Assembly: GCF_038562635.1 (NCBI RefSeq)
Contig: NZ_JBCFBO010000001.1
Location: 1,736,192 to 1,800,191, forward strand
Reading direction: 5' to 3'
Length of the DNA stretch: 64,000 bases
DNA from: Methanobacterium sp.
GTDB lineage: Archaea; Methanobacteriota; Methanobacteria; Methanobacteriales; Methanobacteriaceae
A model generated the notes under the pieces. That model was not told the origin of the DNA and did no database searches. It saw only the letters and a list, made by a program, of their open reading frames with translations. Made by a program: the position numbers and the translations under genes. Shown here piece by piece: positions 4,514 to 45,298 of this stretch. Positions within the stretch are counted from its first letter, which is position 1; each line of letters begins with the position of its first letter.

Positions 4514-4523
4514 ATTTTAACCT

Positions 4524-4733
4524 CCAAAAAATTTTATTTTTTGGGCCCTCGAAATCCTCAAAAATCGATGAATTTCGATTTTTGGGAGTTAGAAAAATGC
4601 AAGGCATTTTTCTAAAATTCAGAGAATTTCGGGGCATGTGAAAATCACAGATTTTCACGGTTGCAAAACTGAAAGTTTTGCAAACATCAAAACGAAGTTT
4701 TGAATGTTTCGGAAAATTCAAAATGAATTTTCC
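4524..4733. repeat. A/T-tract mini-hairpin array (about 8 hairpins)
   Basis: Members include CCAAAAAA-tttta-TTTTTTGG (4524-4544), AGAAAAATGC-aag-GCATTTTTCT (4591-4613), GTGAAAAT-cacag-ATTTTCAC (4638-4658), GCAAAACT-gaa-AGTTTTGC (4663-4681) and GGAAAATTC-aaaat-GAATTTTCC (4711-4733). The array abuts the stop codon (4734-4736) of the cysteine desulfurase gene. Confidence 0.9.
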
Positions 4734-5942
4734 TCAAACTCCTGCGAATTTAGATATTTCTTCAACAGTTTCTGTTAATATATCAATCTCTTCTTTAGTA
4801 TTATAATAATGAACCGATGCTCTAACAGTTCCACCAAGTTTATCCGCACCTATATGTTTTATTGCAGGAATTGCGCAGTGATAACCGCTCCTTACACATA
4901 TATCTTTAAGTTCATCCAGTATTTTAGCAACATCATGAGAATTCATACTTTCCACATTGAAAGCAACTATTCCATGAATATTATCTGGATTACCATAACA
5001 TATTGTATTATCTATGCTATTAATCGCGTCAAACATATATTTTGTAAGTTTTGCGCTGTGTTTTTCAATATTCTCAATTCCAACATTTTCCACATAATTT
5101 ATAGCCGCTCCAAGACCAATGACACCAGCTATATTTTGAGTGCCTCCCTCAAATCTACCTGGAGCAGATTCAAGCGTAAAATCATCTTCTGTAACCTTTG
5201 ATACTGTTCCACCGCCGAGATTAACTGGTTTTAATTTATCCATAACATCGCTTTTGGAATATAAAAATCCAGTCCCAACAGGACCAAAAAGACCTTTATG
5301 TCCTGGAAATGAAACAAAATCTGCCTTTGTTTCTTTTACATCAAATTTTACATGTCCTGCAGATTGTGCGGCGTCAACAAGATATAAAATATCGTTTTCT
5401 TCTGCTATATCCCCAATATCATAGATAGGCTGGCATGAACCAATTGAATTTGAGATATGAGTAGTCGTGATGAGCTTTGTAGTATCATCTACAGCTTTTT
5501 CAATATCCCCAATGTCTATTACGCCATATTTATCTGTTTTTATGACTTTAAGATTAACTCCTGCTTTTTTCAAATTGAGCCATGGCAGAAAATTAGAATG
5601 GTGTTCTATATTGGGAACAATTATTGAATCACCCTTCTTAAATTCCAGGCTGTTTGCTACAAGATTTATAGCTTCAGTGGTGTTTTTTGTAAATATAACC
5701 TCATTTCTATTACAGTTTATAAATTTTGCAATTCTTTCCCTTGTATTTTCAAATTTCATTGTTGCTTTAACTGCTGTTTTATAGGCACCCCTTCCTATAT
5801 TAGCATTGAAATTATGAAAATAATCGCACATTGCATTTACTACAGGCTCTGGAGTTGGAGTAGTGCTTGCAGCGTCCAAATAGATTACTTCATTAAGTAA
5901 AGGAATATCCGATCTGATATCAATATTTTGAGTATTTTCCAT
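4734..5942 (-). CDS. Cysteine desulfurase (class V aminotransferase, SufS/CsdA-like)
   Basis: 402 aa with YLDAASTTP, the PLP-Lys region SFPGHKGLFGP, and a C-terminal active-site loop RSGYHCA. Confidence 0.85.
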   Translation of the reverse strand: MENTQNIDIRSDIPLLNEVIYLDAASTTPTPEPVVNAMCDYFHNFNANIGRGAYKTAVKATMKFENTRERIAKFINCNRNEVIFTKNTTEAINLVANSLEFKKGDSIIVPNIEHHSNFLPWLNLKKAGVNLKVIKTDKYGVIDIGDIEKAVDDTTKLITTTHISNSIGSCQPIYDIGDIAEENDILYLVDAAQSAGHVKFDVKETKADFVSFPGHKGLFGPVGTGFLYSKSDVMDKLKPVNLGGGTVSKVTEDDFTLESAPGRFEGGTQNIAGVIGLGAAINYVENVGIENIEKHSAKLTKYMFDAINSIDNTICYGNPDNIHGIVAFNVESMNSHDVAKILDELKDICVRSGYHCAIPAIKHIGADKLGGTVRASVHYYNTKEEIDILTETVEEISKFAGV

Positions 5943-5997
5943 GAAATACGCTCCTAATTAATTTTAAGTCTATTTGAACCCAGTATAAAGTTACAAC

Positions 5998-6987
5998 TTA
6001 TTTTTCCTCTATTTTTCTTCTAATTTCACTGGCCATTTCCATGGTAGATGCATTTCCACCAATATCCCCAGTTACAACTTTACCTTCACTTAAAACTTCA
6101 ACCAGTGCATTTTCAACTGTACGGGCTGCACCATGTTCTTTAAGGTAATCAAGCATCATTACTGCAGATAATATCATTGCAGAAGGATTTGCAATATTTT
6201 TTCCAGCAATATCTGGCGCGGATCCGTGCACTGGTTCAAATAAACCACTATTTTCTCCGATATTAGCAGATGGTATTAAACCAAGACCACCAACAAGTCC
6301 TGCACCCTCATCTGAAAGTATATCTCCAAATAAATTTGTAGTAACGATCACATTAAACATTTGAGGGTTTGTAATGAAAAACATTGCTGTTGCATCAACA
6401 TAACGATCATCGGTTTCAATATCTTTATAATCTTCAGCAACTTTGTAAAAAATGTCTTTAAATAATCCATCTGTTTTTTTAAGTACATTTGCCTTGTGAA
6501 CTGCTGTAACTTTATTTCTGCCATTTTCTTCAGCATAATCAAATGCAAACTTGCAAATTCTTTCTACAGCATTTCTTGTGGTAACTCTTAAAGCAGTGGC
6601 TCCCTCTTCTGTTTCTTCTTCAAGCCCAATATAGAGATCTTCTGTGTTTTCCCTAACAATTACAAAATCTAAATTGTCAAACAAAGCTTTAGTGCCAGGG
6701 TATGATTTAACAGGCCTTAAATTAACGTAAAGCTCAAGTTCCTGTCTTAATCTGACAATAACATCCGCTGCTGATTCTCCAGCAGCACCAAACAGACATG
6801 CCTGCGATTCTTTTACTATATCAATTGTTTCTTCAGGTAAAGGAACTCCTGAGACTGCTTTGCATTCATCTCCTGCGTCTGCAAATGTGTAATCAAATTC
6901 AACTTCAAGTGCATCTAAAACATGTAATGCTGCTTCCATAACTTCTTTTCCGATACCGTCTCCAGGTACCACCGCTATTTTGTACAT
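5998..6987 (-). CDS. 3-isopropylmalate / homoisocitrate dehydrogenase family (LeuB or AksF)
   Basis: 329 aa with MYKIAVVPGDGIGKEV, NLFGDILSDEGAGLVGGLGL and HGSAPDIAGK. LeuB and AksF cannot be told apart by eye. Confidence 0.85.
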   Translation of the reverse strand: MYKIAVVPGDGIGKEVMEAALHVLDALEVEFDYTFADAGDECKAVSGVPLPEETIDIVKESQACLFGAAGESAADVIVRLRQELELYVNLRPVKSYPGTKALFDNLDFVIVRENTEDLYIGLEEETEEGATALRVTTRNAVERICKFAFDYAEENGRNKVTAVHKANVLKKTDGLFKDIFYKVAEDYKDIETDDRYVDATAMFFITNPQMFNVIVTTNLFGDILSDEGAGLVGGLGLIPSANIGENSGLFEPVHGSAPDIAGKNIANPSAMILSAVMMLDYLKEHGAARTVENALVEVLSEGKVVTGDIGGNASTMEMASEIRRKIEEK

Positions 6988-18331: not shown

Positions 18332-18765
18332 AATGTGGGATTAATTCCCACAATTCCTACTTTTCTTATTTTATATTCTAAAATAAATCATTAATGATTT
18401 AATTATTTTAAATTATTTAATATTAAATTTCATTTTTTAAATCAAGTTAAAATACACCACAATTGATTGAGGATCTGCTCGTTTAATACATGTTAAAATT
18501 TATACCCCCTTATAAAAAAAGAGACAGTTAATAGTTTTGCAAAATTTAATAATAAAAATGAAATCCGATGAGTATTTTTATTAAGTACAAAAGCGAACAA
18601 TACTTTTATTAAATAAATTTCCCTTACGGGAAAAACAGCAGGTCTTCAATGTTCTCATATATAAACTTTGTATAAAAAAATAAATAGAAAAGTTTATCTG
18701 TATCATTGATAGACCTACACCCATATACATAAAAATCATTCATCACACATGTGAAAGGTGATCTA

Positions 18766-20754
18766 ATGGCAGAAGAAAAAAAAGTAGAAACTAGTGAAGA
18801 ACCTAGAATAGGTGTATACGTTTGTCACTGTGGTATCAACATCGGTGGTGTTGTTGACGTAGTGGCAGTTAGAGATTATGCAGCCACACTTCCAAACGTT
18901 GTTGTAGCTGAAGAGTACAAATATTTCTGTTCAGACCCAGGTCAGGAAAAAATCCAGAAGGATATTAAAGAAAAGGGCTTAAACAGAGTAGTAGTAGCAG
19001 CATGTTCACCAAGGCTCCACGAGCCAACATTCAGAAGATGTGTATCAGAAGCAGGATTAAACCCATTTTTATTTGAATTCGCGAACTTAAGAGAACACGA
19101 TTCATGGGTACACATGGATGAACCTGAAGCAGCAACTGAAAAAGCAAAAGACTTAACAAGAATGGCAGTTGCAAAAGCAAGGTTATTAGAACCTCTAGAA
19201 GCTGAAACAGTTAGCGTTACAAATACCGCTATGGTTATCGGTGGAGGAGTTGCAGGTATTCAGTCAGCTCTCGATTTAGCTGACATGGGATTCAAAACTT
19301 ACTTGGTCGAAAAGAACCCAACCATTGGGGGAAGAATGGCCCAGTTAGATAAAACATTCCCAACTCTCGATTGTTCAATGTGTATTCTCGCACCTAAAAT
19401 GGTAGATGCAGGAAAACACGAAAATATTGAATTATTAGCTTACTCAGAAGTTAAAGATGTAGAAGGATACATCGGTAACTTCAAAGTAACCGTAGAAAGA
19501 AAACCAAGATACGTAGACGAAGATCTCTGTGTAGGATGCGGGTCATGTGTAGACGTCTGCCCAATAGAAATACCAAACTACTTCGACGAAGGAATTGGTA
19601 TGGTTAAAGCGGCATACATTCCATTCCCACAAGCAGTACCTCTCCTCGCTACAATCGACAAAGATTATTGTATCGAATGTGGTCTCTGTGACCAGATATG
19701 TGAAAGAGGAGCAGTTCAGCACGATCAGGTAGCTGAAGAAGTTGAACTTGACATAGGTACAATCATCGTTGCAACCGGTTACGACCAGTTCGACGCAAAT
19801 GAAAAACTTGAATACGGATATGCAGACAACGCAAACGTTATCACAGGATTAGAAATCGAAAGGATGATTAACGCATCAGGACCAACAGAAGGTCACGTAT
19901 TAAAACCATCTGACGGTAAACACCCAAAAAGCGTTGCATTCATATTATGTGTTGGTTCAAGGGACGAAAAAGTCGGTAACGAATACTGTTCAAGAGTTTG
20001 CTGTATGCACTCCATGAAAAACGCTCAGCTCGTTAAAGACCACGAACCTGACACTGAAGTCACTATCTATTACATGGATATAAGGGCATTCGGTAAAGGA
20101 TTTGAAGAGTTCTACAAACGGTCACAAGAAAAATACGGTATTAAATTTATCAGAGGCCGGCCAGCAGCAATTCTCGGAAACCCTGACCAGACCCTTACAG
20201 TAAGGGCAGAAGACAGCTTACTTGGAAGAGTAACTGAATACAACTATGATATGGTTGTACTCGCAGCTGGACTCGTACCACCAGCAGGTGCTAACGAATT
20301 AAGACAGACCATTGGGCTCTCCAAGAGTGCAGACGGTTTCTTAATGGAAGCTCACCCAAAACTCAGGCCTGTAGACACACTTACTGAAGGTGTATTCCTT
20401 GCAGGTGTAGCACAAGGACCAAAAGATATTCCTGACTCCGTAGCACAAGCATCAGGTGCTGCAGCAAGAGCAGCAATTCCAATGGTTAAAGGTGAAGTGG
20501 AAATTGAACCAATTACTGCATACACCGATGAAGACGTATGTGGTGCATGTGCAGTTTGTGTAGAACTCTGTCCATACGGAGCTCTAGCAATAGACGAAGG
20601 CCATGCAACTGTTAACATAGCTCTCTGCCACGGATGTGGAACATGCGCTGCAGCATGTCCATCTGGAGCAATGGACCAGAGCCACTTCAAGACTGACCAG
20701 ATTATGGCTCAGATTGAAGCTGCAATGGGCGGAACCGGAGCACAATCCAAATAG
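18766..20754 (+). CDS. hdrA: CoB-CoM heterodisulfide reductase subunit A
   Basis: FAD site [16 protein letters not shown] and four ferredoxin-type motifs ([47 protein letters not shown]). I prefer the ATG at 18766 (AAAGGTGAT upstream) over the track's GTG at 18751. Confidence 0.9.
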
Positions 20755-21107
20755 ATTAAGGAAATTATTCCTTATCTTTTATTTTTATTTTACAACTATT
20801 TCTAACTAATTAACTGTTTTAACTACTTATTTTAGCTTTATAATAGTTTTAGCGCGTTTAATGAAAGAATTTTAATTATAATCATTTTAATGTCCTGTTG
20901 ACATATACTTAAAGCGTTGGATGCAACTTAAATATGTTTCAAAGCGTTTAAAACTCTTCATTTTTAGCCAGATGTTTTAAAATGATTATTTTAACTAATC
21001 AACTGATTTATTTCCAAAAAGGATATATTAATAATATACAAATTAAAGATCAAAATGTATTAAATTACAGTTTATTTTTAAGAATTTTGTAAGGATGGGA
21101 GTTTAAA

Positions 21108-21898
21108 ATGGACTACAATGAACTTGGAAATAAATTAAAGGAAATCTTGAAATTAAAAAATGATCCAGTTGCCATAAAATGGTCTGTAAAAGAACCAAGA
21201 GATATTGAAAAGGAAGAAGGTAAATCTAGATTTTCTACCAAACTTACGAAAATCGTAGATTTTCGTGCCAACGAAACCATCGGTTTCGTGGCCCCAAACC
21301 TTTGCATTTGAGGGCTCCAAAAATTCTATGAATTTTTGAGAGCTAGACAAAGCTATGCACGGCGAAACTTTCTATGCAACTGCTGAAGAAGAGGAATGTA
21401 TGGGTGGTGCAAGATATTCGGGACTTAAAGACCCAAAGGAATTCCCTGCAAACATGCAAAGTGGTGCATTTTTAGTTCCAATGGGAGTTTACAAGAATAT
21501 ACCTGCAGTTCAACGTTCGTGGAAAAATAATTTGAATGTAGAATGCGGGATTTTTAACGCCGTTATCTTTGCCCCCCCCCCCTTGTAAATGCAGAATTTG
21601 AACTGACGTGATATTTGTAGTCTGCAATGCAAAACAGGGGATGGAAATACTCCATGCAAATGCGTATGATTCGGGTGCACATGGCTTAGGTGCTGATTCA
21701 GGACCAATATGCAGCTCAATGGCCGCAGTTCCTTATATGACTGGAAAGGTCACCTACGGTTTTGGAGATGTGGGTTCCAGACAGCATATGGATATTAACC
21801 CAGAAGATATTATGGTTGCTATTCCTGCAAGTGAATTTTCCCGTATAATATCCAACTTAGAAGAAATGAGAACCAAAAAATTCTTTAAGGAAAGGTGA
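21108..21898 (+). pseudogene. DUF169 family gene, disrupted by a 100-nt hairpin-array insertion and two frameshifts
   Basis: Three consecutive ORF fragments (21108-21311, 21355-21588, 21608-21898) together read as one DUF169-like protein: ...KSRFST / ELDKAMHGETFYATAEEEECMGGARYSGL...VIFAP / LVNAEFE / DVIFVVCNAKQGMEILHANAYDSG... Confidence 0.8.
21240..21339. mobile_element. 100-nt A/T-tract mini-hairpin array inserted in the DUF169 coding sequence (MITE-like behaviour)
   Basis: CGAAAATC-gta-GATTTTCG (21247-21265), ACGAAACC-atc-GGTTTCGT (21271-21289) and CAAAAATTC-tat-GAATTTTTG (21318-21338). Deleting 21240-21339 restores the reading frame between fragments 1 and 2. Boundaries are good to within a few nt. 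Confidence 0.6.
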
Positions 21899-22220
21899 TA
21901 TTAATTTATTCGCTCATGTCCAAGTCTGTGTACATTTATAATTCATGCTATAACTGGTTAATTTAAATTAAAAATTTCAAGATGTCAACCCATTTGTTTT
22001 GTGAACATTCAAAACATGAGCGAATTTATTTTACATTCTTAATTTATCCAGACACTTTTAATTTTGCAGAATTCAGTTTTTTAAGAAAAATCATAGAACT
22101 ATTTCAATAAAAATCAGAATTTTCAGTGATTAAGTAGTCATTTTTGAAAGTATTTATACTCATTTATTTTATACATAGTTATGTAAAGCTACTTAATTTA
22201 CATTTACTCGGAGGCAATCA

Positions 22221-23540
22221 ATGTTTAAAGATGAAAAATGTACTCCCGATGTCAAAAACGGAGGACAATTAATGTACGAAAATCAAAAATATGCTCTTAA
22301 AATCAAAGAAGTTACTAAAGAACATCATAGATGGATGGAAAATAGTATAAACTTAATTGCAAGTGAAAATATAACCAGTATAGACGTAAGGGAAGCTCTA
22401 GCATCAGACCTATCCCACAGATATGCGGAAGGTTTACCATGTGAAAGGCTCTATGAAGGCTGTGAATACATAGACATAATTGAAAACTTAACAATTGACC
22501 TATCCAAAAAACTGTTTAATGCTGAACATGCTAATGTACAGCCAAATTCAGGGGTCGTTGCAAACTTAGCCTCATTTTTTGCCCTTACAAATTATAATGA
22601 CCTCCTTATGGCATTAAATGTGCCTGTAGGTGGCCATATAAGCCATGCAGAAGTCAGTGCAGCCGGAATAAGGGGTTTAAGAATCAAATCACACCCATTC
22701 AACAGCGAAACAATGAACATCGATGCCGATGCTATGAAAAAAGAAATTATAAAAAACAAGCCCAAAATGGTTCTTCTTGGCGGTAGTTTATTCTTATTCC
22801 CTCACCCTGTAGAAGATGCACGTGAAGCAGCAGACGAAGTAGGTGCAAAAGTTATGTACGACGGAGCACATGTACTCGGTCTTATAGCTGGTGGCCAATT
22901 CCAGGACCCTCTTAAAGAAGGAGCTGATATTCTTGCTGGAAGTACCCACAAGACCTTCCCCGGTCCTCAAGGTGGTATGATCCTCTGCAAAGAAGACATA
23001 AAAGATAAAATAGACACAGCTGTATTCCCTGGAGTTGTAAGTAACCATCACCTTCACCATGTAGCTGCATTAGGTATTAGTTTAGCAGAAATGCTTGAGT
23101 TCGGTGAAGATTATGCAAAACAGATAATTAAAAACGCTAAAGCTCTTGCACAGAGCCTTTATGAACTTGGCTTTGATGTTCTCTGTGAAGACCTAGGATT
23201 TACAGAATCTCACCAGGTAGCTATGGATGTTAAGAAAGTAGGCAGTGCAGCTAAAATGGCAAAAGACATGGAAGCTAACAACATCATCCTTAACAAGAAC
23301 TTACTCCCATGGGACGACCGTAAACGGACCGATGATCCATCCGGCATAAGGGTTGGTACACAGGAAATAACCCGCCGTGGATTAAAAGAAGCTCAAATGG
23401 AAGAAGTTGCAGAGTTCATCAAAAAAGTAGCCATGGAAGGTAAAGACGTTAAAGCGGAAGTTACAGAGTTCATGAACCAGTACAACACTGTACACTACTG
23501 TTTCAGAGAAGATTTAGCTTATAAATACATTGATTTCTAA
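22221..23540 (+). CDS. glyA: Serine hydroxymethyltransferase
   Basis: 439 aa with LIASENITS and the PLP-Lys motif [18 protein letters not shown] precedes both the ATG at 22221 and the alternative ATG at 22272. Confidence 0.9.
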
Positions 23541-23570
23541 TTCAACTACTCCCCAAATCTTTTATTTTTC

Positions 23571-23858
23571 GGCGCGCCAAACACGAAGTGTTTGAGGGCT
23601 TTTTTCATAAAAAAAGCCGTCAAAAAATCTTCGATTTTTTGGGCCGCGAATCGAAGATTCGCCGGGATTGATCAAAAAAATCCCTCGAAAATCTTAGCTT
23701 GCAAAATTTTTAATTTTGCAGCCCCAAAATTCTACGAATTTTGAGGGATTTTCGGGGCATGTGAAAATTTTCAATTTTCACGGTTGCGAAATTTCATTTC
23801 GCAAACATCAAAAACCTTTGTTTTTTGAAGGCCTCGCGAAAAAACTCTGTTTTTTCGC
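23571..23858. repeat. A/T-tract mini-hairpin array (about 11 hairpins)
   Basis: Examples are CAAAAAATC-ttc-GATTTTTTG, GCGAATC-gaa-GATTCGC, GCAAAATT-ttt-AATTTTGC (23701-23719), GTGAAAAT-tttca-ATTTTCAC (23761-23781), GCGAAAT-ttc-ATTTCGC (23786-23802) and GCGAAAAAAC-tct-GTTTTTTCGC (23836-23858). Confidence 0.9.
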
Positions 23859-24090
23859 TGCGGTAGAAAGAAATCAACTATTTATTCCCTTTTTTAATAT
23901 TTCATTAATTAAAAACAATCAAAATTAGAAATCAATATCTTTCTATTTTTTTAACTTTTCAATACTATTTCTATCAATTTTAAAGGCGAAATCAAATTCT
24001 CGATTATCTATCTAATTTTATAAATACCACTTTTCTCATATATTGAACAAATTAAAGTTTACAATTTTAATACATTTACGAGGAGATTGA

Positions 24091-24783: not shown

Positions 24784-25049
24784 ACAGAAAGTAAAAATAA
24801 TAAGTCCACTAAACCTTTATTTTTCCTACAGGATTTAATAAAGAACCATTCAGATTAAAAATATTAATTTTTATTACATTTCTTTTCCAAATATTACAAC
24901 ATATGGAACGCTCACACCCCGAATGTTGTGCAAACAATATCGCTTCATTTTCGTGTGTCACTGTTAATTAAATTGCATTTTTTTAAGATAAATCCCCTAT
25001 AATCAATTAAACTACAATTTAACATAAAGTATAACTAATGCACAGGATC

Positions 25050-25200
25050 ATGGACATGTAAAAATCGCAATTTTTACGGTCACCAAAACCTTCGAAAACT
25101 GTTAAATCTTCGATTTGACGTATCGAAAATTGTAAATTTTCGAATGCTTTGTTTTCGAGGTTCCAAAAATCTCCGATTTTTGAAGACTGTCGGTTTTTGT
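25050..25200. repeat. A/T-tract mini-hairpin array (about 5 hairpins)
   Basis: GTAAAAAT-cgca-ATTTTTAC (25058-25077), CGAAAATT-gta-AATTTTCG and CAAAAATC-tcc-GATTTTTG (25164-25182). Confidence 0.85.
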
Positions 25201-25237
25201 GAACATGAGCGTTAGAAACTTTTAAGAGGGTATCAAT

Positions 25238-28510: not shown

Positions 28511-31303
28511 TTGAAAAGGCAACTATTAATTTTAATTATTTTTTCTATATTAGCCTTGATAACGTGTGAAACAGCTTCAGCATCACCCGATTTAGCGGTA
28601 ACTTCTGTAAATGTGACAAGTAATGTTTCACCAGGCAGTACAGTAACAATAAATGATACTGTGACTAATCAAGGTGATCAAGCAGCAGATGGATTCACTG
28701 TAGGCTATTACATACAGGATGAATATGCTGTAGTTAAAAAACCTGCTAGTCAGCGTAATGCATCTATTTATGGAGATAAAGTAGTCTGGTCTGATTACAG
28801 ATATGATCGGCAGGAAAGTGATCTTTACTATAAAAATATTACAGGTACAGAAGACGGAGTTATTTATACTCCAGGTGATCAACTTAATCCTGCAATTTAT
28901 GGAGATGTAATTGTATGGCAGGAAAATTTGTCCTGGTTAGGTAATTCTCATTGGCAAATTCTGGGTTATAATATTCCAGGTAGAGATGATCCAATTAATG
29001 ATAGTATATACCTATTATACAACACAACTTCTGATCAGATCAATCCATCAATATATCAGGATAAAATAGTCTGGCAGCAGCAGAGATCAGACGGAAGCTG
29101 GGACATATATTTATATGACTTCCCAATCACAGACGATATCGCGATGCCCAAAGAGAAATGGATTACGCGAATAACTAAAGACGGTGCTAATCACATTAAT
29201 CCGTATGTTAATGGAAATTACATTGTATGGCAGCAAGATAATGGAGACGGCATCTGGAATATATACACATATGATCTTTCTACAGGAGATATAAATCGAG
29301 TATGTCAATCTTCAGAAAACCAGACTAATCCTGCGCTTTATGGAGATAACGTTGTCTGGCAGCAGTATAACACAACCAGTAAAAACTGGGACATATACAT
29401 GTATGATCTTTCCGCAGATGAAGAAACCCAAATAACCCATAATACATCCAACCATATTAATCCTGCAATTTACGGGGATAAGATAGTGTGGCAGGACAAC
29501 AGGAACGGGAACTGGGACATATACATGTACGATTTAACTCTTGGAATTGAAAGGCAGTTAACTATAGACAAAGGGAACCAGATAAACCCTGCAATATATG
29601 ATAATAAAGTTGTTTGGACTGATGATAGAAACAGTAATGAAGACATCTACATGACAGATGACCTCACATTAGCACCAGAATATACTCGTTACGTTTCAGG
29701 TCTAGCAGCAGGAAAATCAGATAGTGCACTGACAAATATAACTTTACCATCGGATTTAAAAGCAAACGTCAATTATTACATACTAGTTATGGCAGATGCA
29801 GCGTACGATAACAGCGTTTCTGAATCTAACGAAAATAATAATATAAAATTCAGCGGTGCAATGATTGTACCTGATGCCGACCTCACAATGCCTTCAGTAT
29901 CTGGGCCTGCTACAGCTCAAACAGGCGGATCAATGGTAGTAGTAAATACTGTGAAAAATATAGGGACCAAAAACTCAAATCCATTCCATGTCTATTTCTA
30001 TCTCTCAAAAGACGGCACTACATTAAATACCAAGATTGGATCTAGATTTGTTTCAGGAGGTCTCAAAGCAGGTGCATCAAACACTGCATACACAAATCTT
30101 ACAATTCCATCCAATATCTTTGGAAGCTATTATATTGTAGCAGTAGTTGATCCTCTAAATAAAACATGTGAAACAAATAAATTAAACAATATTGTGGCTT
30201 CTTCAACCACTACAAATATATGTGCTCCAGATCTTGTTATTACATCAATAAGCACAGGAACAACCACATACAAAAGAGGAGACAAAATAACCATCCAAAA
30301 CACAGTAAAAAACCAGGGAAGCTCCACATCAAAAGGTTTCTATGTTAACTTCTATCTCTCAAATGACAGCACTATTACCACATCTGACACCTACCTAGGA
30401 CAAAGATACATATCAGGAGGTCTCAACGCGGGCATATCAAATACAGAATACACAAACTTTACAATCCCATATGATGCGTCTGGAAATTACTATATCGGGG
30501 CGATAGTTGACTCAACTAACACCGTATTTGAATCAGACGAATCAAACAATATAAAAGCATTCTCAACTACCATAGAGGTATGTTCACCTGATCTTGTTAT
30601 TACATCAATAAGCACCGGGACAACCACATACAAAAGAGGAGACAAAATAACCATCCAAAACACAGTGAAAAACCAGGGGAAAATTGCATCAGGAGGATTT
30701 TATGTCAATTTCTATCTCTCAAATGACAGCAACATTACCACATCTGACACCTACCTAGGACAAAGATATATATCAGGTCTCAATGCAGGTGCATCAAATA
30801 CAACAACCACAAGCTTTACAGTCCCATCCAGCCTATCTGGAAACTATTATATTGGGGCGATAGTTGACTCAACCAACGCAGTTTTTGAATCAGACGAATC
30901 AAACAATATAGCGACCTATTCAAACACTATAAATGTAGTCCTTCCTGATCTTGTAGCTTCATCAGTAAGTGCAGGATCAACTTCGTACAGAAGAGGCAGC
31001 AAAATGACTATTAAAAACACAGTGAAAAACCAGGGAAAAGTTTCATCCGGAGGATTTTATGTCAAAATTTACATCTACCGAAGCTATAAAGGCAAAATAA
31101 CTTCCATATACCTTGGTAGACGATACATTAGCTCACTTAAAGCAGGGGCATCAAATACAGCGTACACTAAATTAACTATACCTTCAACTATAGCAAAAGG
31201 ACTTTACTACTGCAAGATGGTAGTCGATACAGAAAACAAGGTATCAGAGTCCAGCAAATCAAACAATGTGATTAGCAGCGGAACATGGGTGAATATATTT
31301 TAA
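28511..31303 (+). CDS. Secreted surface protein: CARDB domain, beta-propeller repeats, then five CARDB-like repeats
   Basis: 930 aa with the signal peptide MKRQLLILIIFSILALITCETASA. About 8 blades carry NPAIYGDK(I/V)VWQ...WDIY(M/L)YDL. PDL(V/A)(I/V)TS...TV(K/T)NQG units are characteristic of CARDB. TTG start. Confidence 0.75.
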   Translation: MKRQLLILIIFSILALITCETASASPDLAVTSVNVTSNVSPGSTVTINDTVTNQGDQAADGFTVGYYIQDEYAVVKKPASQRNASIYGDKVVWSDYRYDRQESDLYYKNITGTEDGVIYTPGDQLNPAIYGDVIVWQENLSWLGNSHWQILGYNIPGRDDPINDSIYLLYNTTSDQINPSIYQDKIVWQQQRSDGSWDIYLYDFPITDDIAMPKEKWITRITKDGANHINPYVNGNYIVWQQDNGDGIWNIYTYDLSTGDINRVCQSSENQTNPALYGDNVVWQQYNTTSKNWDIYMYDLSADEETQITHNTSNHINPAIYGDKIVWQDNRNGNWDIYMYDLTLGIERQLTIDKGNQINPAIYDNKVVWTDDRNSNEDIYMTDDLTLAPEYTRYVSGLAAGKSDSALTNITLPSDLKANVNYYILVMADAAYDNSVSESNENNNIKFSGAMIVPDADLTMPSVSGPATAQTGGSMVVVNTVKNIGTKNSNPFHVYFYLSKDGTTLNTKIGSRFVSGGLKAGASNTAYTNLTIPSNIFGSYYIVAVVDPLNKTCETNKLNNIVASSTTTNICAPDLVITSISTGTTTYKRGDKITIQNTVKNQGSSTSKGFYVNFYLSNDSTITTSDTYLGQRYISGGLNAGISNTEYTNFTIPYDASGNYYIGAIVDSTNTVFESDESNNIKAFSTTIEVCSPDLVITSISTGTTTYKRGDKITIQNTVKNQGKIASGGFYVNFYLSNDSNITTSDTYLGQRYISGLNAGASNTTTTSFTVPSSLSGNYYIGAIVDSTNAVFESDESNNIATYSNTINVVLPDLVASSVSAGSTSYRRGSKMTIKNTVKNQGKVSSGGFYVKIYIYRSYKGKITSIYLGRRYISSLKAGASNTAYTKLTIPSTIAKGLYYCKMVVDTENKVSESSKSNNVISSGTWVNIF
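30228..30947 (+). repeat. Tandem 360-bp coding repeat (two CARDB units) with near-identical cores
   Basis: 30230-30318 versus 30590-30678 shows about 3 mismatches in 89 nt, and 30349-30415 versus 30709-30775 is similarly close. The offset is exactly 360 nt. Confidence 0.85.
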
Positions 31304-31311
31304 ATCAGGGA

Positions 31312-31329
31312 TCTCAAGCTAGCTTGAGA
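31312..31329 (+). terminator. Perfect 18-nt palindrome just after the surface-protein stop; possible 3'-end structure
   Basis: TCTCAAGCT|AGCTTGAGA lies 9 nt after the stop at 31303. It is followed by a second GAGGG..CCCTC stem and T-rich sequence. A role in termination is inferred only. Confidence 0.3.
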
Positions 31330-31635
31330 AGAGGGGCAAATACCTCCCTCTAAATTCTTTATTATATCCCCAATATTTTAATTTTTAAAATAACATATCT
31401 TAAAACTAAATTTAAACTTTTTTTAAAGGCAAATATAAAAAAGTAGTACATAATTACAAATAAATTTTAAGTTTAAGCTAAAAAGTTTCAGTATAATACC
31501 TATGTCTCTAGAGACATAGGTAAATTACTTAATTAATGGCCATCCACTCAATCTTCCCAAAATGAGAGTGGCAATTCATCCTTTTTTATAACTTATTAAT
31601 AAGGTTTTCGGTAAAATTATAATTTTATAATAATT

Positions 31636-31779
31636 GACGCCCCATTTGAGAGTTCAAACAAGAGGGTGAGCGGGGCGCCATAATTAGTATAGTGATATTG
31701 TATAAAAATTAGTAGGTGTAACATCCCCCCGGAGGCGATACGATCAGTATTAAAAATAGTATCGTTGTAATAGGGGATG
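31636..31779 (+). other. Two GC-rich stem-loops in an otherwise AT-rich intergenic region (candidate structured RNA)
   Basis: Hairpin 1 is CGCCCC(31638-31643)/GGGGCG(31672-31677). Hairpin 2 is CATCCCC(31722-31728)/GGGGATG(31773-31779), with an inner CGATAC/GTATCG stem. The strand and any transcription are unknown. Confidence 0.25.
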
Positions 31780-31983
31780 CACTACTAGTTAAGATTAAAG
31801 GTATTTATATCTTTTTCTATTTCGCAAAAAAATACTATTACCTCAAAAAATATGCGTTAACTTTTAAATATCTGCGAATCAGATATAGATCAAGAATAAA
31901 TTAATGAAAAAAATGTAATGAAGCACAGAAATTTTTACAAAAAAGCTGATTCTTATATTTAATTTATAAATACCCTAAGGAGA

Positions 31984-34900
31984 ATGAAAATGCCAATAAA
32001 AGAGGCCAAGAGATCATACGATACAAAGCTTATAGAAAAAGATATTCAAAAGTTTTGGAATGAAAACAGTATATATCAAAAAACAGACAAATTAAGAGAG
32101 AATAGTCCTAAATTTTCATTTTTAGACGGCCCTCCTTATTGTAGTGGTAAAATACACCTGGGAACTGCATGGAATAAAACCATAAAAGACACTTTTTTGC
32201 GCTTTAAAAGCATGTCAGGTTTCAACCTGCGGAGACAAGCTGGATGGGATACTCATGGACTTCCTATAGAACACAAAGTAGAAGGGTTACTCGGTTTAAA
32301 AAGTAAAAAGGAAATTGAAACTAAAATAGGAATTGCCAATTTTGTAGAAAAATGTAAAGAATTTGCAATCGAAAATAAAGCCCTCATGACCGATCAGTTT
32401 AAAATGCTGGGTATATGGATGGACTGGAATAATCCTTATGTTACTTTTGATACTAAATACATGGAATCCTGCTGGTGGACCCTAAAGAAAGCAAACGAAA
32501 AAGAACTTCTTATAAACGATCTCAGAGTTATAACATGGTGCCCCCGATGTGAAACAGCACTTGCACTTGCAGAAATCGATTATGAAAATAAAGAAGACCC
32601 TTCAATTTATGTTAAATTCCCATTAAAAGAGTCTGAAAACGGTAATGAATACATACTTGTATGGACAACAACACCATGGACCCTTCCTGCTAACATGGCA
32701 GTATGTGTACATCCTGATTTTGATTATGCTTATGTTAATGTTAACGGCGAAGTTTATATAATGGCAGAAGCCCTTGTTAGCTCTTTATTCGAAGATCAAG
32801 ATTATGAAATTCTTAAAACAGTGAAAGGTAGTGATCTTGAGGGCCTTGAATATCAACACCCACTTATAGATGAAATACCTGTTCAAAAAGAATTTACGCA
32901 TAAAATACTTCCAGGAGAACATGTAACTTTAACAGAAGGTACTGGTTGTGTTCATACCGCTCCAGGACATGGTCCAGACGACTTTGATATTGGTAAAAAA
33001 TACGGTTTACCAATATTCTGTCCAGTAGATGAGGCAGGACTATTTAAAAAAGAAGCTGGAAAATATGAAGGCGAATTCGTAAAAGAAGCCGATCCTTACA
33101 TCATAACTGATTTAGATGTACACGGTTTACTCTTTAAAGAAGGCATAATTGACCACAGGTACGGGTTCTGCTGGAGATGTAAAACTCCTATTATATACCT
33201 TGCAACACAGCAGTGGTTCCTTAAAGTTACAGACATTAAAGACAAAATGTTATCCGAGTTAGACCATGTTGAATGGGTTCCAGAATGGGCTGGTGAAAGC
33301 AGGTTCCGTAACTGGGTTGAAAATGCAAGAGACTGGACAATATCAAGGCAGAGATACTGGGGAATTCCAATTCCAATCTGGAGATGTGAAGACTGTGGAG
33401 AAATAACCGTTATAGGATCCATCGACGAGTTAAAAGAGAAAACAGTTAAAGGAACTCTCGAAGGAGATTTCATACACAGACCGTATGTTGATGAAATTAC
33501 AATCCAGTGTGAATGTGGGGGAGACATGAACCGTGTCCCTGACGTTTTAGACGTGTGGATAGACTCAGGAGTAGCAGGATGGGCAGCTCTGCACTATCCC
33601 GAAGAAAAAGAAATGTTTGATGAATGGTTCCCTTACGATTTCATAACAGAAGGACATGATCAAACTAGAGGATGGTTCTATTCACAATTAGGGTGCGGAG
33701 TAATATCTTTTGACAAAGCACCATATAAAAAAGTTTTAATGCACGGATTTACCCTCGATGAAGAGGGAAGAAAGATGAGTAAATCCCTCGGAAACGTAGT
33801 AGCGCCAGAAGAAGTCATTGAACAGTACGGAGCAGATATACTAAGATTTTATCTACTCTGGGGAAATAAACCATGGGAAGACCTGAAATTCACATGGGAT
33901 GAGATTAAAAACGTCCAGAAAATGTTCAATATTCTCTGGAATGTTTATGTATTTTCAACTACCTACATGGCAATAGACAATTTCAACCCAACACTGTACA
34001 CTGAAAAAGATCTTAAATTAAGAGATGAGGACAGATGGATAACTTCACGTGCTAATTCTCTTGCAAAAGAAGTAACAGAAGCTTTAGATTCATTATATCT
34101 CCATAAAGCTACAAGGGCTATAAATCATTTCATACTGGAAGATTTGAGCAGATGGTATGTTAGACTCATAAGAGGACGTACATGGGTTGAAAAAGAAGAT
34201 CCTGATAAATTAGGAGCTTACTTTACACTATATAACGCCTTAAAACTTCTAATTAAAACAATGGCCCCAATAACTCCCCACATTACCGAAGAGATTTACC
34301 AGAATCTCATAAAAGGAGTGGAAGAAGATGCTCCTGAAAGTATACATATGGAAGACTGGGAATTCAATGAAGACTTGATTGATACAGAATTAGAAGAAAA
34401 TATGGATATCGTCAGAGATATCATCGAAGCATGTGCAAGAGGAAGAGATGTTGCAAGATACAAACTTAGATGGCCCGTAAGCGAAATTGTAGTTGTTTCT
34501 GAGGACAAAAAAGTTTTAAGCGCAGTTGAATCACTTAAAGCTGTCATAATGGAACAGGCCAATACAAAAGAGATCATAGCAACAGATGAATTTGAAAACC
34601 TCAAGATAATTGCAAAACCTAATTTAAAGACCCTTGGACCAAGACTCAGAGGCGATGCACCAAAAGTAATGAAACATCTTACAGAAGCCGACGGATCAGA
34701 GATAAAAGCAGTCTTAGATGCTGAAGAAAGTTATTCTGTTGAAGTTGATGACAGAACCATAGAACTTGGTGTTGACGATATTTTATTTGAAACTGAACTT
34801 CCAGAAAATCTTGTAAGTGCAGATTTCGATTCTGGAAATGTATTCATAAACACAGAAGTCACTGAAGAAATATTATCCGAAGCAATGTCCAGAGAACTTA

Positions 34901-35130
34901 TAAGAAGAGTTCAAGACATGCGAAAAGACCTTGACTTAGATGTTGAAGCCAATATTCAGGTATTTGTAGAGTGTGATGAAGGTTTCAAAGAATTAATTAA
35001 ACCATTCTTTGACTTTATTTCCAATGAGGTACGTGCTGAACAGCTGAGTTTTGAGGCACAGGAAGGAGATTATACAAAAGAGTGGAAGATTGAGGATGAA
35101 AACCTTAAAATAACTATCAAAAAAACATAA
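31984..35130 (+). CDS. ileS: Isoleucine--tRNA ligase
   Basis: 1048 aa with the HIGH-type motif [16 protein letters not shown] and the motif [15 protein letters not shown] lies upstream. Confidence 0.95.
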
Positions 35131-35159
35131 TAAAATATTAAAGTGTTTTTGATCAACCG

Positions 35160-35264
35160 CTCAAAAATTCGTAGAATTTTTGGCCCCCCGAAAATCCCTC
35201 AAAATTCGTAGAATTTTGGGGCATCGAAAATTTTTAATTTTCGAAAGCTATGATTTTCGAGGGC
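35160..35264. repeat. A/T-tract mini-hairpin array (about 4 hairpins)
   Basis: CAAAAATTC-gta-GAATTTTTG (35162-35182), CCCTCAAAATTC-gta-GAATTTTGGGG (35196-35221) and CGAAAATT-ttt-AATTTTCG (35225-35243). Confidence 0.9.
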
Positions 35265-35286
35265 TTTTTCCTAAAAATGTTGAAAG

Positions 35287-35338
35287 GTGGAAGATTGAGG
35301 ATGAAAACCTCAAAATAACAATTAAAAAAACACAATGA
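35287..35338 (+). repeat. Duplicate of the last 49 nt of ileS, retained as an in-frame tail
   Basis: 35082-35130 versus 35287-35335 differs at 4 of 49 positions. Three differences are synonymous third-position changes and the fourth turns the stop TAA into CAA. Copy B reads [18 protein letters not shown] possible third partial copy lies at 35345-35369. Confidence 0.8.
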
Positions 35339-35405
35339 GGTAACAAACCTCAAATAACTCTTAAAAATATACACTAATTAAATATATTAACTACAGCGTG
35401 ATATC

Positions 35406-43339: not shown

Positions 43340-43860
43340 CCTTAAAAACTGTTAAAATCCCTTAAAATCTGTGATTTTGGGGATCCTCAAACGCGAAGCA
43401 TTCAAAAATCTCTGATTTTTGATGCGTCAAAATTCTTATAATTTTGACAGCGTTTGGGACATGTGAAAACCTTTGGTTTTCACGGTTGCGGAACATTAAA
43501 AAATCTCCGATTTTTTATGCAACGAAAAATGCAAAGCATGCAAACACTTCGTGTTTGCTGTTACAAAATCGTAGATTTTGTAAACATTTTTCTCCTGCTT
43601 TGTTCTGCAAACATCGGAAATCTTGATTTCCAAATGTTCGAAAAATCTTTTTGATTTTCTCAACCTCAAAAAATTTTTTATTTTTTTGGGCCGTCGAACA
43701 CATGGTGTTCGGGCCCTACAAATCTTTGATTTGTGGCCAAGGAAACATAGTTTCCTACGGCTTAGAAATCAGAGCAGTCGAAAATTCATAGAATTTTCGT
43801 CGCGTCAAAATTTTCAATTTTGACAGATTTCGAAAGGTTCAAAAAATTCATAGAATTTTC
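43340..43860. repeat. Largest A/T-tract mini-hairpin array (about 18-20 hairpins, about 520 bp)
   Basis: TCAAAAATC-tct-GATTTTTGA (43402-43422), GTCAAAATT-cttat-AATTTTGAC (43426-43448), GTGAAAAC-ctttg-GTTTTCAC (43463-43483), GCAAACAC-ttc-GTGTTTGC (43540-43558), TACAAAATC-gta-GATTTTGTA (43562-43582), GGAAAC-ata-GTTTCC (43741-43755), CGAAAATTC-ata-GAATTTTCG (43779-43799) and GTCAAAAT-tttca-ATTTTGAC (43804-43824). Confidence 0.9.
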
Positions 43861-44152
43861 CTCAACTTTAGCGTTTGAAAGTTAATTCTTAATTTGTACT
43901 GTTTAAATATTTAGAGATATTGATTAGATGTGTTATCTAATATTAATAGTTTATACAAATCTGACAAACAGAAAGCAACTCCTTGTTTAATATTTGATAC
44001 TATCCAACTTTTTATTGCAATATTTAATCAAATAATAACTTTAAAAGTGGTAGCACAAAACATTAATAATAAAAAATACTTAAATTATCTTATTGTAAAA
44101 CACGTTCTTCAAGTGTATTTCTCCTTAATTAGATTTATAAAAACGTGGTAAA

Positions 44153-44884: not shown

Positions 44885-45298
44885 TTAAAATTGCTCCAAA
44901 TAATTTTCTACTATGGCATCAACTATACACGGCGCATTCCATCCTATGATATCTGCAGCAGCTTCTTCAAGCTCAGGAGGTACATTTTCCATACCGTAAG
45001 GCCTGATGACAATTATGGGCTTTTCTAATTTATTTGAAATGTCTATTTGCTTCTTTATAATATCTTTATACTTATTGTATAGCCCTGAAAGAATTATTAC
45101 AACTCCTACAGGCATTATCTGTTCTTGAAGCTCTTCTCCAGTGATCTTATCTTTTTCAAGTATCCCATAGTTTTTAAACTCAAAATCATGTGCTGCTGCC
45201 AATTTCTCAGTAAACGTGTTATATTCTTCCTCATTTTGACCTATATGGCTTATAAATATATTATATAATCTTGATTCTGATTCAAACATTTCATCCAC
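44885..45298 (-). CDS. TIR-like domain protein (DUF1863 / MTH538 / ThsB-like)
   Basis: 137 aa with YNIFISHIGQNEEEYNTFTEKL..FEFKNYG...VVIILSGLY...KPIIVIRPYG...IIGWN. This matches my memory of the MTH538-type TIR-like fold family. Confidence 0.5.
   Translation of the reverse strand: MDEMFESESRLYNIFISHIGQNEEEYNTFTEKLAAAHDFEFKNYGILEKDKITGEELQEQIMPVGVVIILSGLYNKYKDIIKKQIDISNKLEKPIIVIRPYGMENVPPELEEAAADIIGWNAPCIVDAIVENYLEQF

Follow-up and report, generated by a model that had tools for sequence, protein, structure and literature searches.

The window analysed here is a stretch of 64,000 nucleotides (nt) of Methanobacterium DNA with a G+C content of 34% (contig NZ_JBCFBO010000001.1, positions 1,736,192 to 1,800,191 of the forward strand). 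In the gene order hdrA (18751-20754), DUF169 (21108-21898) and glyA (22221-23540), the middle gene, a member of the DUF169 family (PF02596) on the plus strand, is a pseudogene interrupted by a 100-nt array of short DNA hairpins, which are members of a family found throughout the window. Loci and contigs used for comparison are labelled with L-numbers (L001, L071 etc.).

The hairpin insertion in the DUF169 gene

The first open reading frame (ORF) of the gene (21108-21311) reads ...EEGKSRFST and then runs into the hairpins, and in-frame ELDKA residues stand before a second ORF (21355-21588). After in silico repair of three frame lesions, a protein of 228 aa was obtained that matched the Pfam profile of DUF169 over its full length (positions 1-209 of 209, E = 6e-48, 163.9 bits). 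The repaired protein has more than 500 homologs, all of them DUF169 proteins, and is 93-96% identical to intact orthologs of 228 aa (93% for the top matches of the homolog search). Across the junction it reads ...RF(C)TK|LDKAMHGE, the same as the orthologs.

Alignment of the DNA with six intact orthologs (L001-L005, L058, L060) yielded a single clean gap of 100 nt, corresponding to an insert at 21243-21342; with CT at both junctions, 21245-21344 is an equally valid placement (ambiguity of 2 nt). The empty site is ACCAAA|CTAGACAAA. The insert begins with CTTACGAAAATC and ends with TTTTTGAGAG, which are not inverted copies of each other, and neither terminal inverted repeats (TIRs) nor a clean or fixed target-site duplication (TSD) were found at the insert ends or junctions, in agreement with the initial annotation, which was made from the sequence alone. 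The annotation had placed a 100-nt hairpin block in this gene and expected its removal to restore homology. The ORFs, the Pfam match and the ortholog alignment bear this out, and no extra residues occur at the site in intact orthologs. Its coordinates (21240-21339) were correct in length and 3 nt too far to the left at the junction, its repaired join (...ST|ELDKA) differs from that of the orthologs, and three further lesions (Cys43Ser, a poly-C expansion of +5 nt and a 1-nt deletion, see below) had gone unnoticed.

An exact look-up of the GlyA protein of the window retrieved ten independent assemblies (JGI, ENA and six Logan runs), nine of which span the DUF169 site; a corresponding look-up with hdrA gave no match. 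The insert was identical base for base in these nine assemblies, which stem from different samples (JGI, ENA, Logan runs); an assembly or sequencing artefact is ruled out by this agreement, the length of the poly-C tract alone being variable.

The insert folds into four hairpins, and its ends coincide with hairpin ends. H1 (21246-21266; ACGAAAATC-GTA-GATTTTCGT) has a perfect 9-bp stem and a 3-nt loop, and H2 (21271-21289; ACGAAACC-ATC-GGTTTCGT) has a perfect 8-bp stem. H3 (21292-21314; CCCCAAAC-cttTGCAt-TTGAGGG) is degenerate and, with a bulged A, folds as a bulged hairpin. The terminal hairpin, H4 (21315-21342; CTCCAAAAATTC-TAT-GAATTTTTG(A)GAG), has a perfect core at 21318-21338. The three perfect hairpins had already been placed by the initial annotation; H3 is added here. 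H2 shares the base ACGAAA...TTTCGTG with H1, and H3 shares the base CYCCAAA...TTTGAGRG with H4. In comparison with shuffled sequences, the folding of 21225-21360 gave z = -7.8 on the plus strand and -6.6 on the minus strand, and the 100 nt alone gave z = -7.5. Judged by these alignments and folds, four family hairpins were genuinely inserted into the DUF169 gene at 21243-21342.

A 9-bp TSD (CTTACGAAA / CTAGACAAA) was considered and rejected, as only 5 of the 9 positions match and as L074 has CATTCGAAA / CTGGATAAA in this place. Both CTTACGAAA and CTAGACAAA are natural variants of the same three codons, and their likeness may be due to microhomology or to chance. The sequence of L058 (M. bryantii-like; ATT ACG AAA) could possibly be an excision footprint, which is not claimed here because Leu-Thr-Lys is common in unrelated orthologs.

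Decay of the gene

Besides the insertion, three lesions were recognized in the window. The codon for Cys43 (21234-21236, plus strand), 8 nt upstream of the insert, is TCT (Ser) in place of the near-invariant TGC or TGT. A poly-C tract (21572-21582, plus strand) comprises 11 C versus CCCCRC in the orthologs, which results in a net frameshift of +5 nt; it is the sole run of at least 7 C or G in the 64 kb, and assemblies of the window's lineage vary in showing 11, 10 or 7 C here, which could mean either that the homopolymer is hypermutable in the dead gene or that it was miscalled. A 1-nt deletion (21603-21604, plus strand; GAACCNGAC to GAACTGAC) is present in all assemblies of this lineage and absent from L071, L072 and L075.

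The 67-aa first fragment of the DUF169 protein clusters with protein fragments of other lengths from contigs L071-L075. These contigs carry a hairpin insertion at the identical site and keep Cys43, and in L071, L072 and L075 the C-terminal ORF of 179 codons is intact and the hairpin insertion is the sole lesion. Because sister occupied alleles keep Cys43 and an intact C-terminal ORF, the insertion is ranked as the earliest lesion of the gene, with Cys43Ser, the poly-C expansion and the 1-nt deletion as later decay in the lineage of the window.

Substitutions at otherwise invariant residues were found in occupied alleles of L071 (S85N and P99R) and L061 (L147F and G160S). In L076 the site described above is empty, and a different array of 101 nt and four hairpins lies about 110 nt further along the same gene (5991-6091; also represented by NCBI WP_331275699.1). 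The ortholog of L103 is broken by a 1-nt deletion around position 435. The DUF169 gene seems to be dispensable in this group and to have been lost independently more than once (L076, L103).

Alleles at the insertion site

Lineages other than that of the window carry other alleles exactly at this site, so that the 100-nt array is one state of an evolving site; its insertion as one 100-nt unit is unproven. The 100-nt allele (H1-H2-H3-H4) is found in the window, L061 and L067. The 101-nt allele of L071 has H1 and H4 as in the window, CGAAATC-TCT-GATTTCG as H2, and a perfect hairpin, CCCCGAACAC-TAC-GTGTTCGAGGG (CGAACAC-TAC-GTGTTCG), as the counterpart of H3; several of its differences from the window in H2 and H3 are compensatory, including a change from C:G to T:A in H2. 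The 53-nt alleles (L072, L073 and L075) consist of H1 and H4 only, H2 being absent; in L075 the loop of H1 is inverted (TAC versus GTA), all 3 loop bases being different and the stem being kept. The 48-nt allele of L074 consists of an H1-like hairpin and CTCCAAACAC-TTG-TGTTTGAGAG, which has the base of H4 with a different apex. Including the empty form, the series comprises empty, two-hairpin, flipped-loop, altered-apex and two four-hairpin alleles. The allele lengths of 100, 101, 53 and 48 nt leave remainders of 1, 2, 2 and 0 on division by three, and the 48-nt allele, which stays in frame, contains TGA.

Occupied alleles were assigned to clades by the 560 nt downstream of the insert. Clade 1 comprises the window, L061, L067 and L071, with L058 as the nearest empty relative, and clade 2 comprises L072-L075, with L004 as the nearest empty relative. 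H4 is identical across the 100-, 101- and 53-nt alleles of both clades, and between the clades H1 and H4 together differ in 1 of 53 nt, versus about 10% in the coding flanks. The H2-H3 pair of 47-48 nt was either gained between H1 and H4 or lost from between them. The four-hairpin allele may be read as H1-[H1'-H4']-H4, i.e., as a two-hairpin block nested in the junction of another.

The kinship of the region 18513-23540 is mosaic. The gene hdrA and the N-terminal part of DUF169 are nearest to L003 (95%), the C-terminal part of DUF169 is nearest to L071 and L058, and glyA is nearest to L004 (95%), which points to frequent homologous recombination between Methanobacterium lineages.

The hairpin family and its arrays

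Hairpins of the family follow the pattern 5'-SN-AAAA(A)-YY / 3-nt loop / RR-(T)TTTT-NS; they are AT-stemmed, 19-28 nt each, with recurrent G/C clamps and a recurrent bulged A or T. Perfect hairpins (stem of at least 8, loop of 3) number 34 in the window versus 2.4 in dinucleotide shuffles. Regarding polarity, 27 are A-first (A-run in the 5' arm; 0.27 expected) and 3 are T-first (0.43 expected). All members of this set are intergenic except those in the DUF169 pseudogene. Each hairpin is oriented by its asymmetric bulge, and both orientations occur. The flanking sequence of the hairpin types, which was inspected for a GTAG-like head, contains no constant tetranucleotide; GTAG occurs only inside some loops.

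The arrays are mosaics of recurring hairpin types. Single hairpins as well as the module described in the next section occur in both orientations, with loops as reverse-complement pairs, and the units that recur among the compared arrays are single hairpins and hairpin pairs only. The stems of H1 and H4 recur at many other loci and genomes, H4 with the same loop and H1 with differing loops; the CGAAAATC hairpin type of H1 was also found in L005, L010 and L057. An exact scan of a metagenome collection with the H4 24-mer matched 10 other contigs, all at other loci. In these contigs H4 is usually the last hairpin of its array and is preceded by varied partners, including H1-type and H3-type hairpins; the order H3-type then H4 recurs in contig L087, and the full order H1-H2-H3-H4 is absent from all 10. 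In L085 (3800-3852) a two-hairpin block of 51 nt ending in H4 lies in frame in a DDE_Tnp_1 transposase ORF, between the E and D of the Y..R...E......K signature, which we take to be that of IS4/IS5 transposases; this ORF has another stop further upstream.

Several arrays of the window have empty counterparts in sister lineages. An array of 326 nt (23541-23866) starts right after the stop codon of glyA and interrupts the loop of a native hairpin (TTGATTTC-TAAAAA-GAAATCAA); it is missing in L002, L003, L004, L005 and L058, in which the spacer between glyA and the next gene measures 134-194 nt versus 553 nt in the window. An array of 217 nt (4522-4738) is absent in the sister lineage L099, where the empty site reads GCAGGAG|GTTAAAAT; GGAG (4 nt) is present at both junctions of the array. 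The largest array of the window (43340-43880), in the divergent intergenic region upstream of msrA, contains modules at 43381-43461 and 43758-43838, and its content is wholly different in L091 and L094, whose flanks are about 99% identical. A further array (25058-25200) lies inside a segment of about 310 nt that is specific to the lineage of the window and contains a module at 25087-25163 (47.9 bits). L002 has an array of its own (94 nt, 355-448) inside a native hairpin after hdrA, whose site is empty in sister lineages, and L005 has an array where the window has none. The empty sister sites of the arrays at 23541-23866, at 4522-4738 and at 355-448 of L002 are evidence for mobility or turnover, together with the second array in the DUF169 gene of L076, the block in the transposase of L085 and the exchanged content upstream of msrA. 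In all, this is a multicopy hairpin family that is rapidly changing in some Methanobacterium genomes.

The 217-nt array hit the last sense codon of a gene for a NifS-like aminotransferase (4734-5942, minus strand; site at 4734-4741). The 3' end of this gene reads ...GGA GGT TAA in the empty allele and ...GGA GTT TGA in the window; the ends differ between the alleles, and it follows that the array supplies the last residue and the stop codon.

The genes flanking the arrays are housekeeping genes (RPA, RadA, NifS-like, RibH, MsrA and PurL; Pfam scans of ten genes), and these scans found no transposase, including Y1 types, beside any array of the window, the rest of the genome not having been searched. 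A search of the whole window against Rfam gave no match at the gathering thresholds, and hits with E up to 1 near the locus were at chance level, which rules out a known RNA family. Regarding a plasmid or virus origin, which was rejected, the 326-nt array was unmatched in the PLSDB plasmids and INPHARED phages, and a 22-mer of the module was unmatched in IMG/VR.

The three-way-junction module

A larger recurring unit of about 80 nt was found at 35184-35266 (plus strand), in which two hairpins and an unpaired GCTWT lie inside an outer stem (CCCCGAAAATC/GATTTTCGAGGG). A copy in the opposite orientation (23679-23759, minus strand) scored 99 bits with the covariance model R2 and shares 37 identical nt with the copy at 35184; an earlier model, R1, was dropped for its mis-registered structure. 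The identity of these two copies with each other and with one at 3694-3776 of L032, from a different species and a different locus, is about 90%. The R2 search yielded 15 full or near-full matches (E < 1e-8) from 11 sources. In the alignment of the 15 matches, which was fitted to the model, 97.8% of the cells form pairs, and both sides have changed in 20 of the 31 pairs. Covariation scored 0.443, compared with 0.173 in shuffles, of which 0 of 500 reached the observed value, and with at most 0.096 when the partners were slid. The orientation of the module relative to neighbouring genes is mixed, which argues against a cis-acting RNA and for an element acting at the DNA level.

The module at 35184-35266 lies within a segment of 144 nt (35143-35286) that holds an array and is flanked by direct repeats of 61 nt (35082-35142 and 35287-35347; 85% identical). 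The repeat duplicates the 3' end of a gene of 1048 aa, with a further potential stop, and resembles an extended duplication of the target made as the array arrived.

Spread of the arrays

The junctions of six insertion events were compared. The end of the left flank is repeated at the end of the insert over 2 (CT), 0, 6 (TTAAGG), 0, 4 (GGAG) and 0 nt, and the left flanks end in CCAAA, TCTAA, TAAGG, GAGTT, AGGAG and TAGAA, without a common target. Two of the insertions, the array after glyA and that after hdrA in L002, lie in native hairpins.

The account of the spread of the family that is favoured here, with a probability of roughly 0.55, is copying by hairpin-guided template switching, by which blocks of whole hairpins would be copied from one array to a place elsewhere. 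While single-stranded DNA is being replicated or repaired, the growing strand would quit its target, copy at least one complete hairpin from a folded donor array and return via a microhomology of 0-6 nt. New blocks would favour existing hairpins, at or inside them, and arrays would grow by nesting. If the same strand switching took place inside a single hairpin, as in the quasipalindrome mechanism, stems would stay perfect, 'compensatory' changes would result and loops would flip. We infer template switching, which would extend quasipalindrome strand switching, because it agrees with microhomology of variable length, an occasional long duplication of the target, blocks that end at the feet of hairpins, inverted loops and corrected stems taken together. 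The view of the initial annotation that this locus is the clearest evidence for arrays inserting as units finds no support in that form: block-wise copying is backed by the module of about 80 nt elsewhere and by the recurrence of H4 with H1-type and H3-type partners, but not by the DUF169 locus alone.

Archaeal transcription terminates at oligo-T. Whichever strand is read, the A-run of the hairpins comes first, in the 5' arm, and the T-run follows in the 3' arm, so that such a signal would be present on both strands; this suggests that retained copies may act as bidirectional terminator-like signals; the arrays are probably strong terminators on both strands.

Several observations weigh against copying by template switching. 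Three of the six junctions have no microhomology. No sibling or donor of the full 100 nt was found in the window, the compared loci or other arrays, the whole genome not having been searched. The covariation of the module was counted on an alignment whose fit to the model favours the structure, with a margin that is still large. The exact conservation of the hairpins, their fixed polarity and the unpaired GCTWT are not predicted by passive copying alone and would be expected of a sequence-specific protein, e.g., a transposase. Finally, the same H1...H4 insertion is present at the same nucleotide in two clades whose nearest relatives are empty, which requires recombinational spread or loss of the allele; as the gene is a recombination mosaic, such spread or loss is plausible, with repeated site-specific insertion as the alternative.

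The conservation of the hairpins leads to a rival account, in which the elements resemble repetitive extragenic palindromes (REPs) and the bacterial interspersed mosaic elements (BIMEs) built of them, or palindrome-associated transposable elements (PATEs), and are moved in trans by an HUH tyrosine transposase encoded elsewhere, either a REP-associated tyrosine transposase (RAYT) or TnpA of the IS200/IS605 type. Such an enzyme would recognise the hairpins and cut at their feet, giving insertions of whole hairpins without TIR or TSD. Inserts that start and stop at hairpin feet and have no TIR and no fixed TSD fit this account, as do single hairpins that are base-perfect across loci and genomes, the usually terminal position of H4 and the conserved unpaired GCTWT of the module; the polarity is better explained, and the asymmetric bulge orients hairpins that are present in both orientations. 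However, no Y1 gene lies beside any array of the window (the rest of the genome was not searched), no common tetra- or pentanucleotide precedes the inserts on the 5' side (AAA, TAA, AGG, GTT, GAG, GAA), and neither a target duplication of 61 nt nor junction repeats of 2-6 nt are expected from peel-and-paste transposition. We know of no report of a REP/RAYT system in archaea, and literature searches found none. Movement by such an enzyme is considered unlikely but is the main rival of template switching. A different enzymatic origin, as a classical miniature inverted-repeat transposable element (MITE), i.e., a DDE insertion sequence shortened by deletion and mobilized by cut-and-paste, agrees with the size of the insert, which is within the range of MITEs, and a true, polymorphic MITE 13 nt downstream of the DUF169 stop indicates that DDE transposases are active in the lineage. 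The insert itself has no TIR, no fixed-length TSD and no near-identical full-length copies, and the arrays are mosaics of single hairpins, which makes this origin highly improbable.

Two further explanations dispense with imported DNA or with a dead gene. The hairpins could have arisen in place by local slippage or palindrome formation in an already dead gene, with nothing imported, given that the insert opens with 9 nt (CTTACGAAA) which other orthologs have at this position as a natural codon variant for Leu-Thr-Lys, that the coding sequence upstream contains TAGATTTTC, a repeat of part of the H1 arm, and that apices change in place between alleles. This is very improbable, since H1 and H4 are typical of the family and their stems recur unchanged at many other loci and genomes, since CTA GAC AAA, the native codons, follow undamaged on the right side of the insert, and since the insertion is the sole lesion in L071, L072 and L075. 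That the gene is still functional, through removal or bypass at the RNA level (a bulge-helix-bulge intron or recoding) or as two polypeptides, would agree with the intact 179-codon ORF in three diverged occupied alleles, but is scarcely credible. Splicing or recoding is excluded because the allele lengths differ modulo three, restoring no single frame in all carriers, and because the in-frame allele contains TGA; in addition, invariant residues are replaced in occupied alleles, the window copy has two more frameshifts, and the same gene is inactivated otherwise in L076 (other array) and L103 (1-nt deletion).

Going beyond hairpin-guided template switching as such, it is tentatively proposed, with doubt prevailing, that the family represents an undescribed kind of archaeal mobile DNA: self-propagating hairpin modules, the covarying three-way junction of about 80 nt among them, without TIR, TSD or recognisable transposase that nest in the loops and junctions of one another, flip their loops, remake whole arrays while the flanks change by less than 1%, and perhaps serve as bidirectional terminators.

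Comparison with known systems

Knowledge of bacterial REPs and BIMEs goes back forty years, and their movement has rarely been caught. The REP/BIME/REPIN elements and RAYTs of E. coli and Pseudomonas are similar to the Methanobacterium family in that short imperfect palindromes are highly over-represented in extragenic DNA, where they stand alone or form mosaic clusters, occur in either orientation and frequently follow directly on stop codons; their insertions, which lack TIR and TSD, are polymorphic between strains. The description of REPs and BIMEs as short over-represented extragenic palindromes, forming clusters of few types in both orientations, applies to the family as a whole. Unlike them, the Methanobacterium family is archaeal, has AT-rich stems, A-run/T-run polarity and 3-nt loops, appears to lack a conserved GTAG-like head, builds a covarying three-way junction and nests. 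The PATEs of Haloquadratum and cyanobacteria, which are derived from IS200/IS605, are likewise small, without TIR or TSD, and have hairpins at both ends; however, they are discrete, with fixed ends, and insert 3' of a fixed short target, whereas the arrays described here are mosaic and have no common target.

Rickettsia palindromic elements (RPEs) are also selfish hairpin repeats of spacers, sometimes of coding sequence, without a known transposase, and the 51-nt in-frame block in the transposase of L085 resembles an RPE insertion. RPEs measure 100-150 bp and are kept in frame in functional proteins, whereas the DUF169 gene was put out of frame by its insertion and is decaying. The palindromic repeats of organelles (Volvox; GC clusters and double-hairpin elements of fungal mitochondria) are comparable as selfish spacer hairpins without a known transposase; they, like RPEs, belong to other lineages and have other sequences. 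Quasipalindrome-templated mutation in E. coli and phage T4 predicts stem correction, compensatory changes and loop inversion, all three of which were observed between alleles, but is known as a process of point mutation in one hairpin and not of block copying to new loci.

Literature searches returned no description of these hairpin elements of Methanobacterium. According to a 2024 review, little is known of archaeal MITEs, very few are listed, and Methanobacterium thermoautotrophicum appears without them (PMC10969869). The family described here is apparently an undescribed and very dynamic archaeal family of hairpin repeats. To our knowledge, comparable small-palindrome systems are essentially undescribed in archaea.

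As a gene-killing event the DUF169 insertion is ordinary; its allele series is informative on the evolution of hairpin repeats, as it shows the birth and remodelling of an array at a site whose ancestral state is known to the base because it lies in coding sequence. For annotation it is relevant that arrays split genes, change stop codons and fill spacers. With this system it can be tested whether template switching during replication is sufficient for the spread of hairpin repeats. If either enzyme-free copy-choice or a new enzyme were responsible, this would represent a new mode of repeat proliferation and the first REP-like system in Archaea.

Additional features of the window

The MITE downstream of the DUF169 gene is 112 nt long (21911-22022), with perfect TIRs of 9 bp (CGCTCATGT / ACATGAGCG) and a TSD of 8 bp (AATTTATT, at 21903-21910 and 22023-22030). 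It is present in the sublineage of the window and in L003, is absent from sublineage B (L061, L065, L067, L069) and from L001, L002, L004, L058 and L060, and was probably active recently. The lineage-specific segment that contains the array at 25058-25200 extends over 24905-25215 and replaces about 28 nt of L003, with the array in its right half. The ends of this segment (AACGCTCAC... / ...GTGAACATGAGCGTT) resemble those of the MITE at 21911-22022; it is either a MITE carrying an array or an array nested in a MITE.

Two large genes (28511-31303 and 31984-35130) are internally repetitive, with tandem units of about 129-156 nt and about 357-360 nt, and CARDB and Tricorn_N domains are annotated for them in a sister contig. 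The region 28511-35130 is the most diverged between the two sublineages (98.1% identity, 30 gaps). Between msrA and the gene at 44885-45298 (minus strand), which lies downstream of it, L091 and L095 contain a hairpin array of about 180 nt that the window lacks. The gene at 44885-45298 carries a ThsB_TIR domain in sister contigs and may encode a Thoeris-like defence component.

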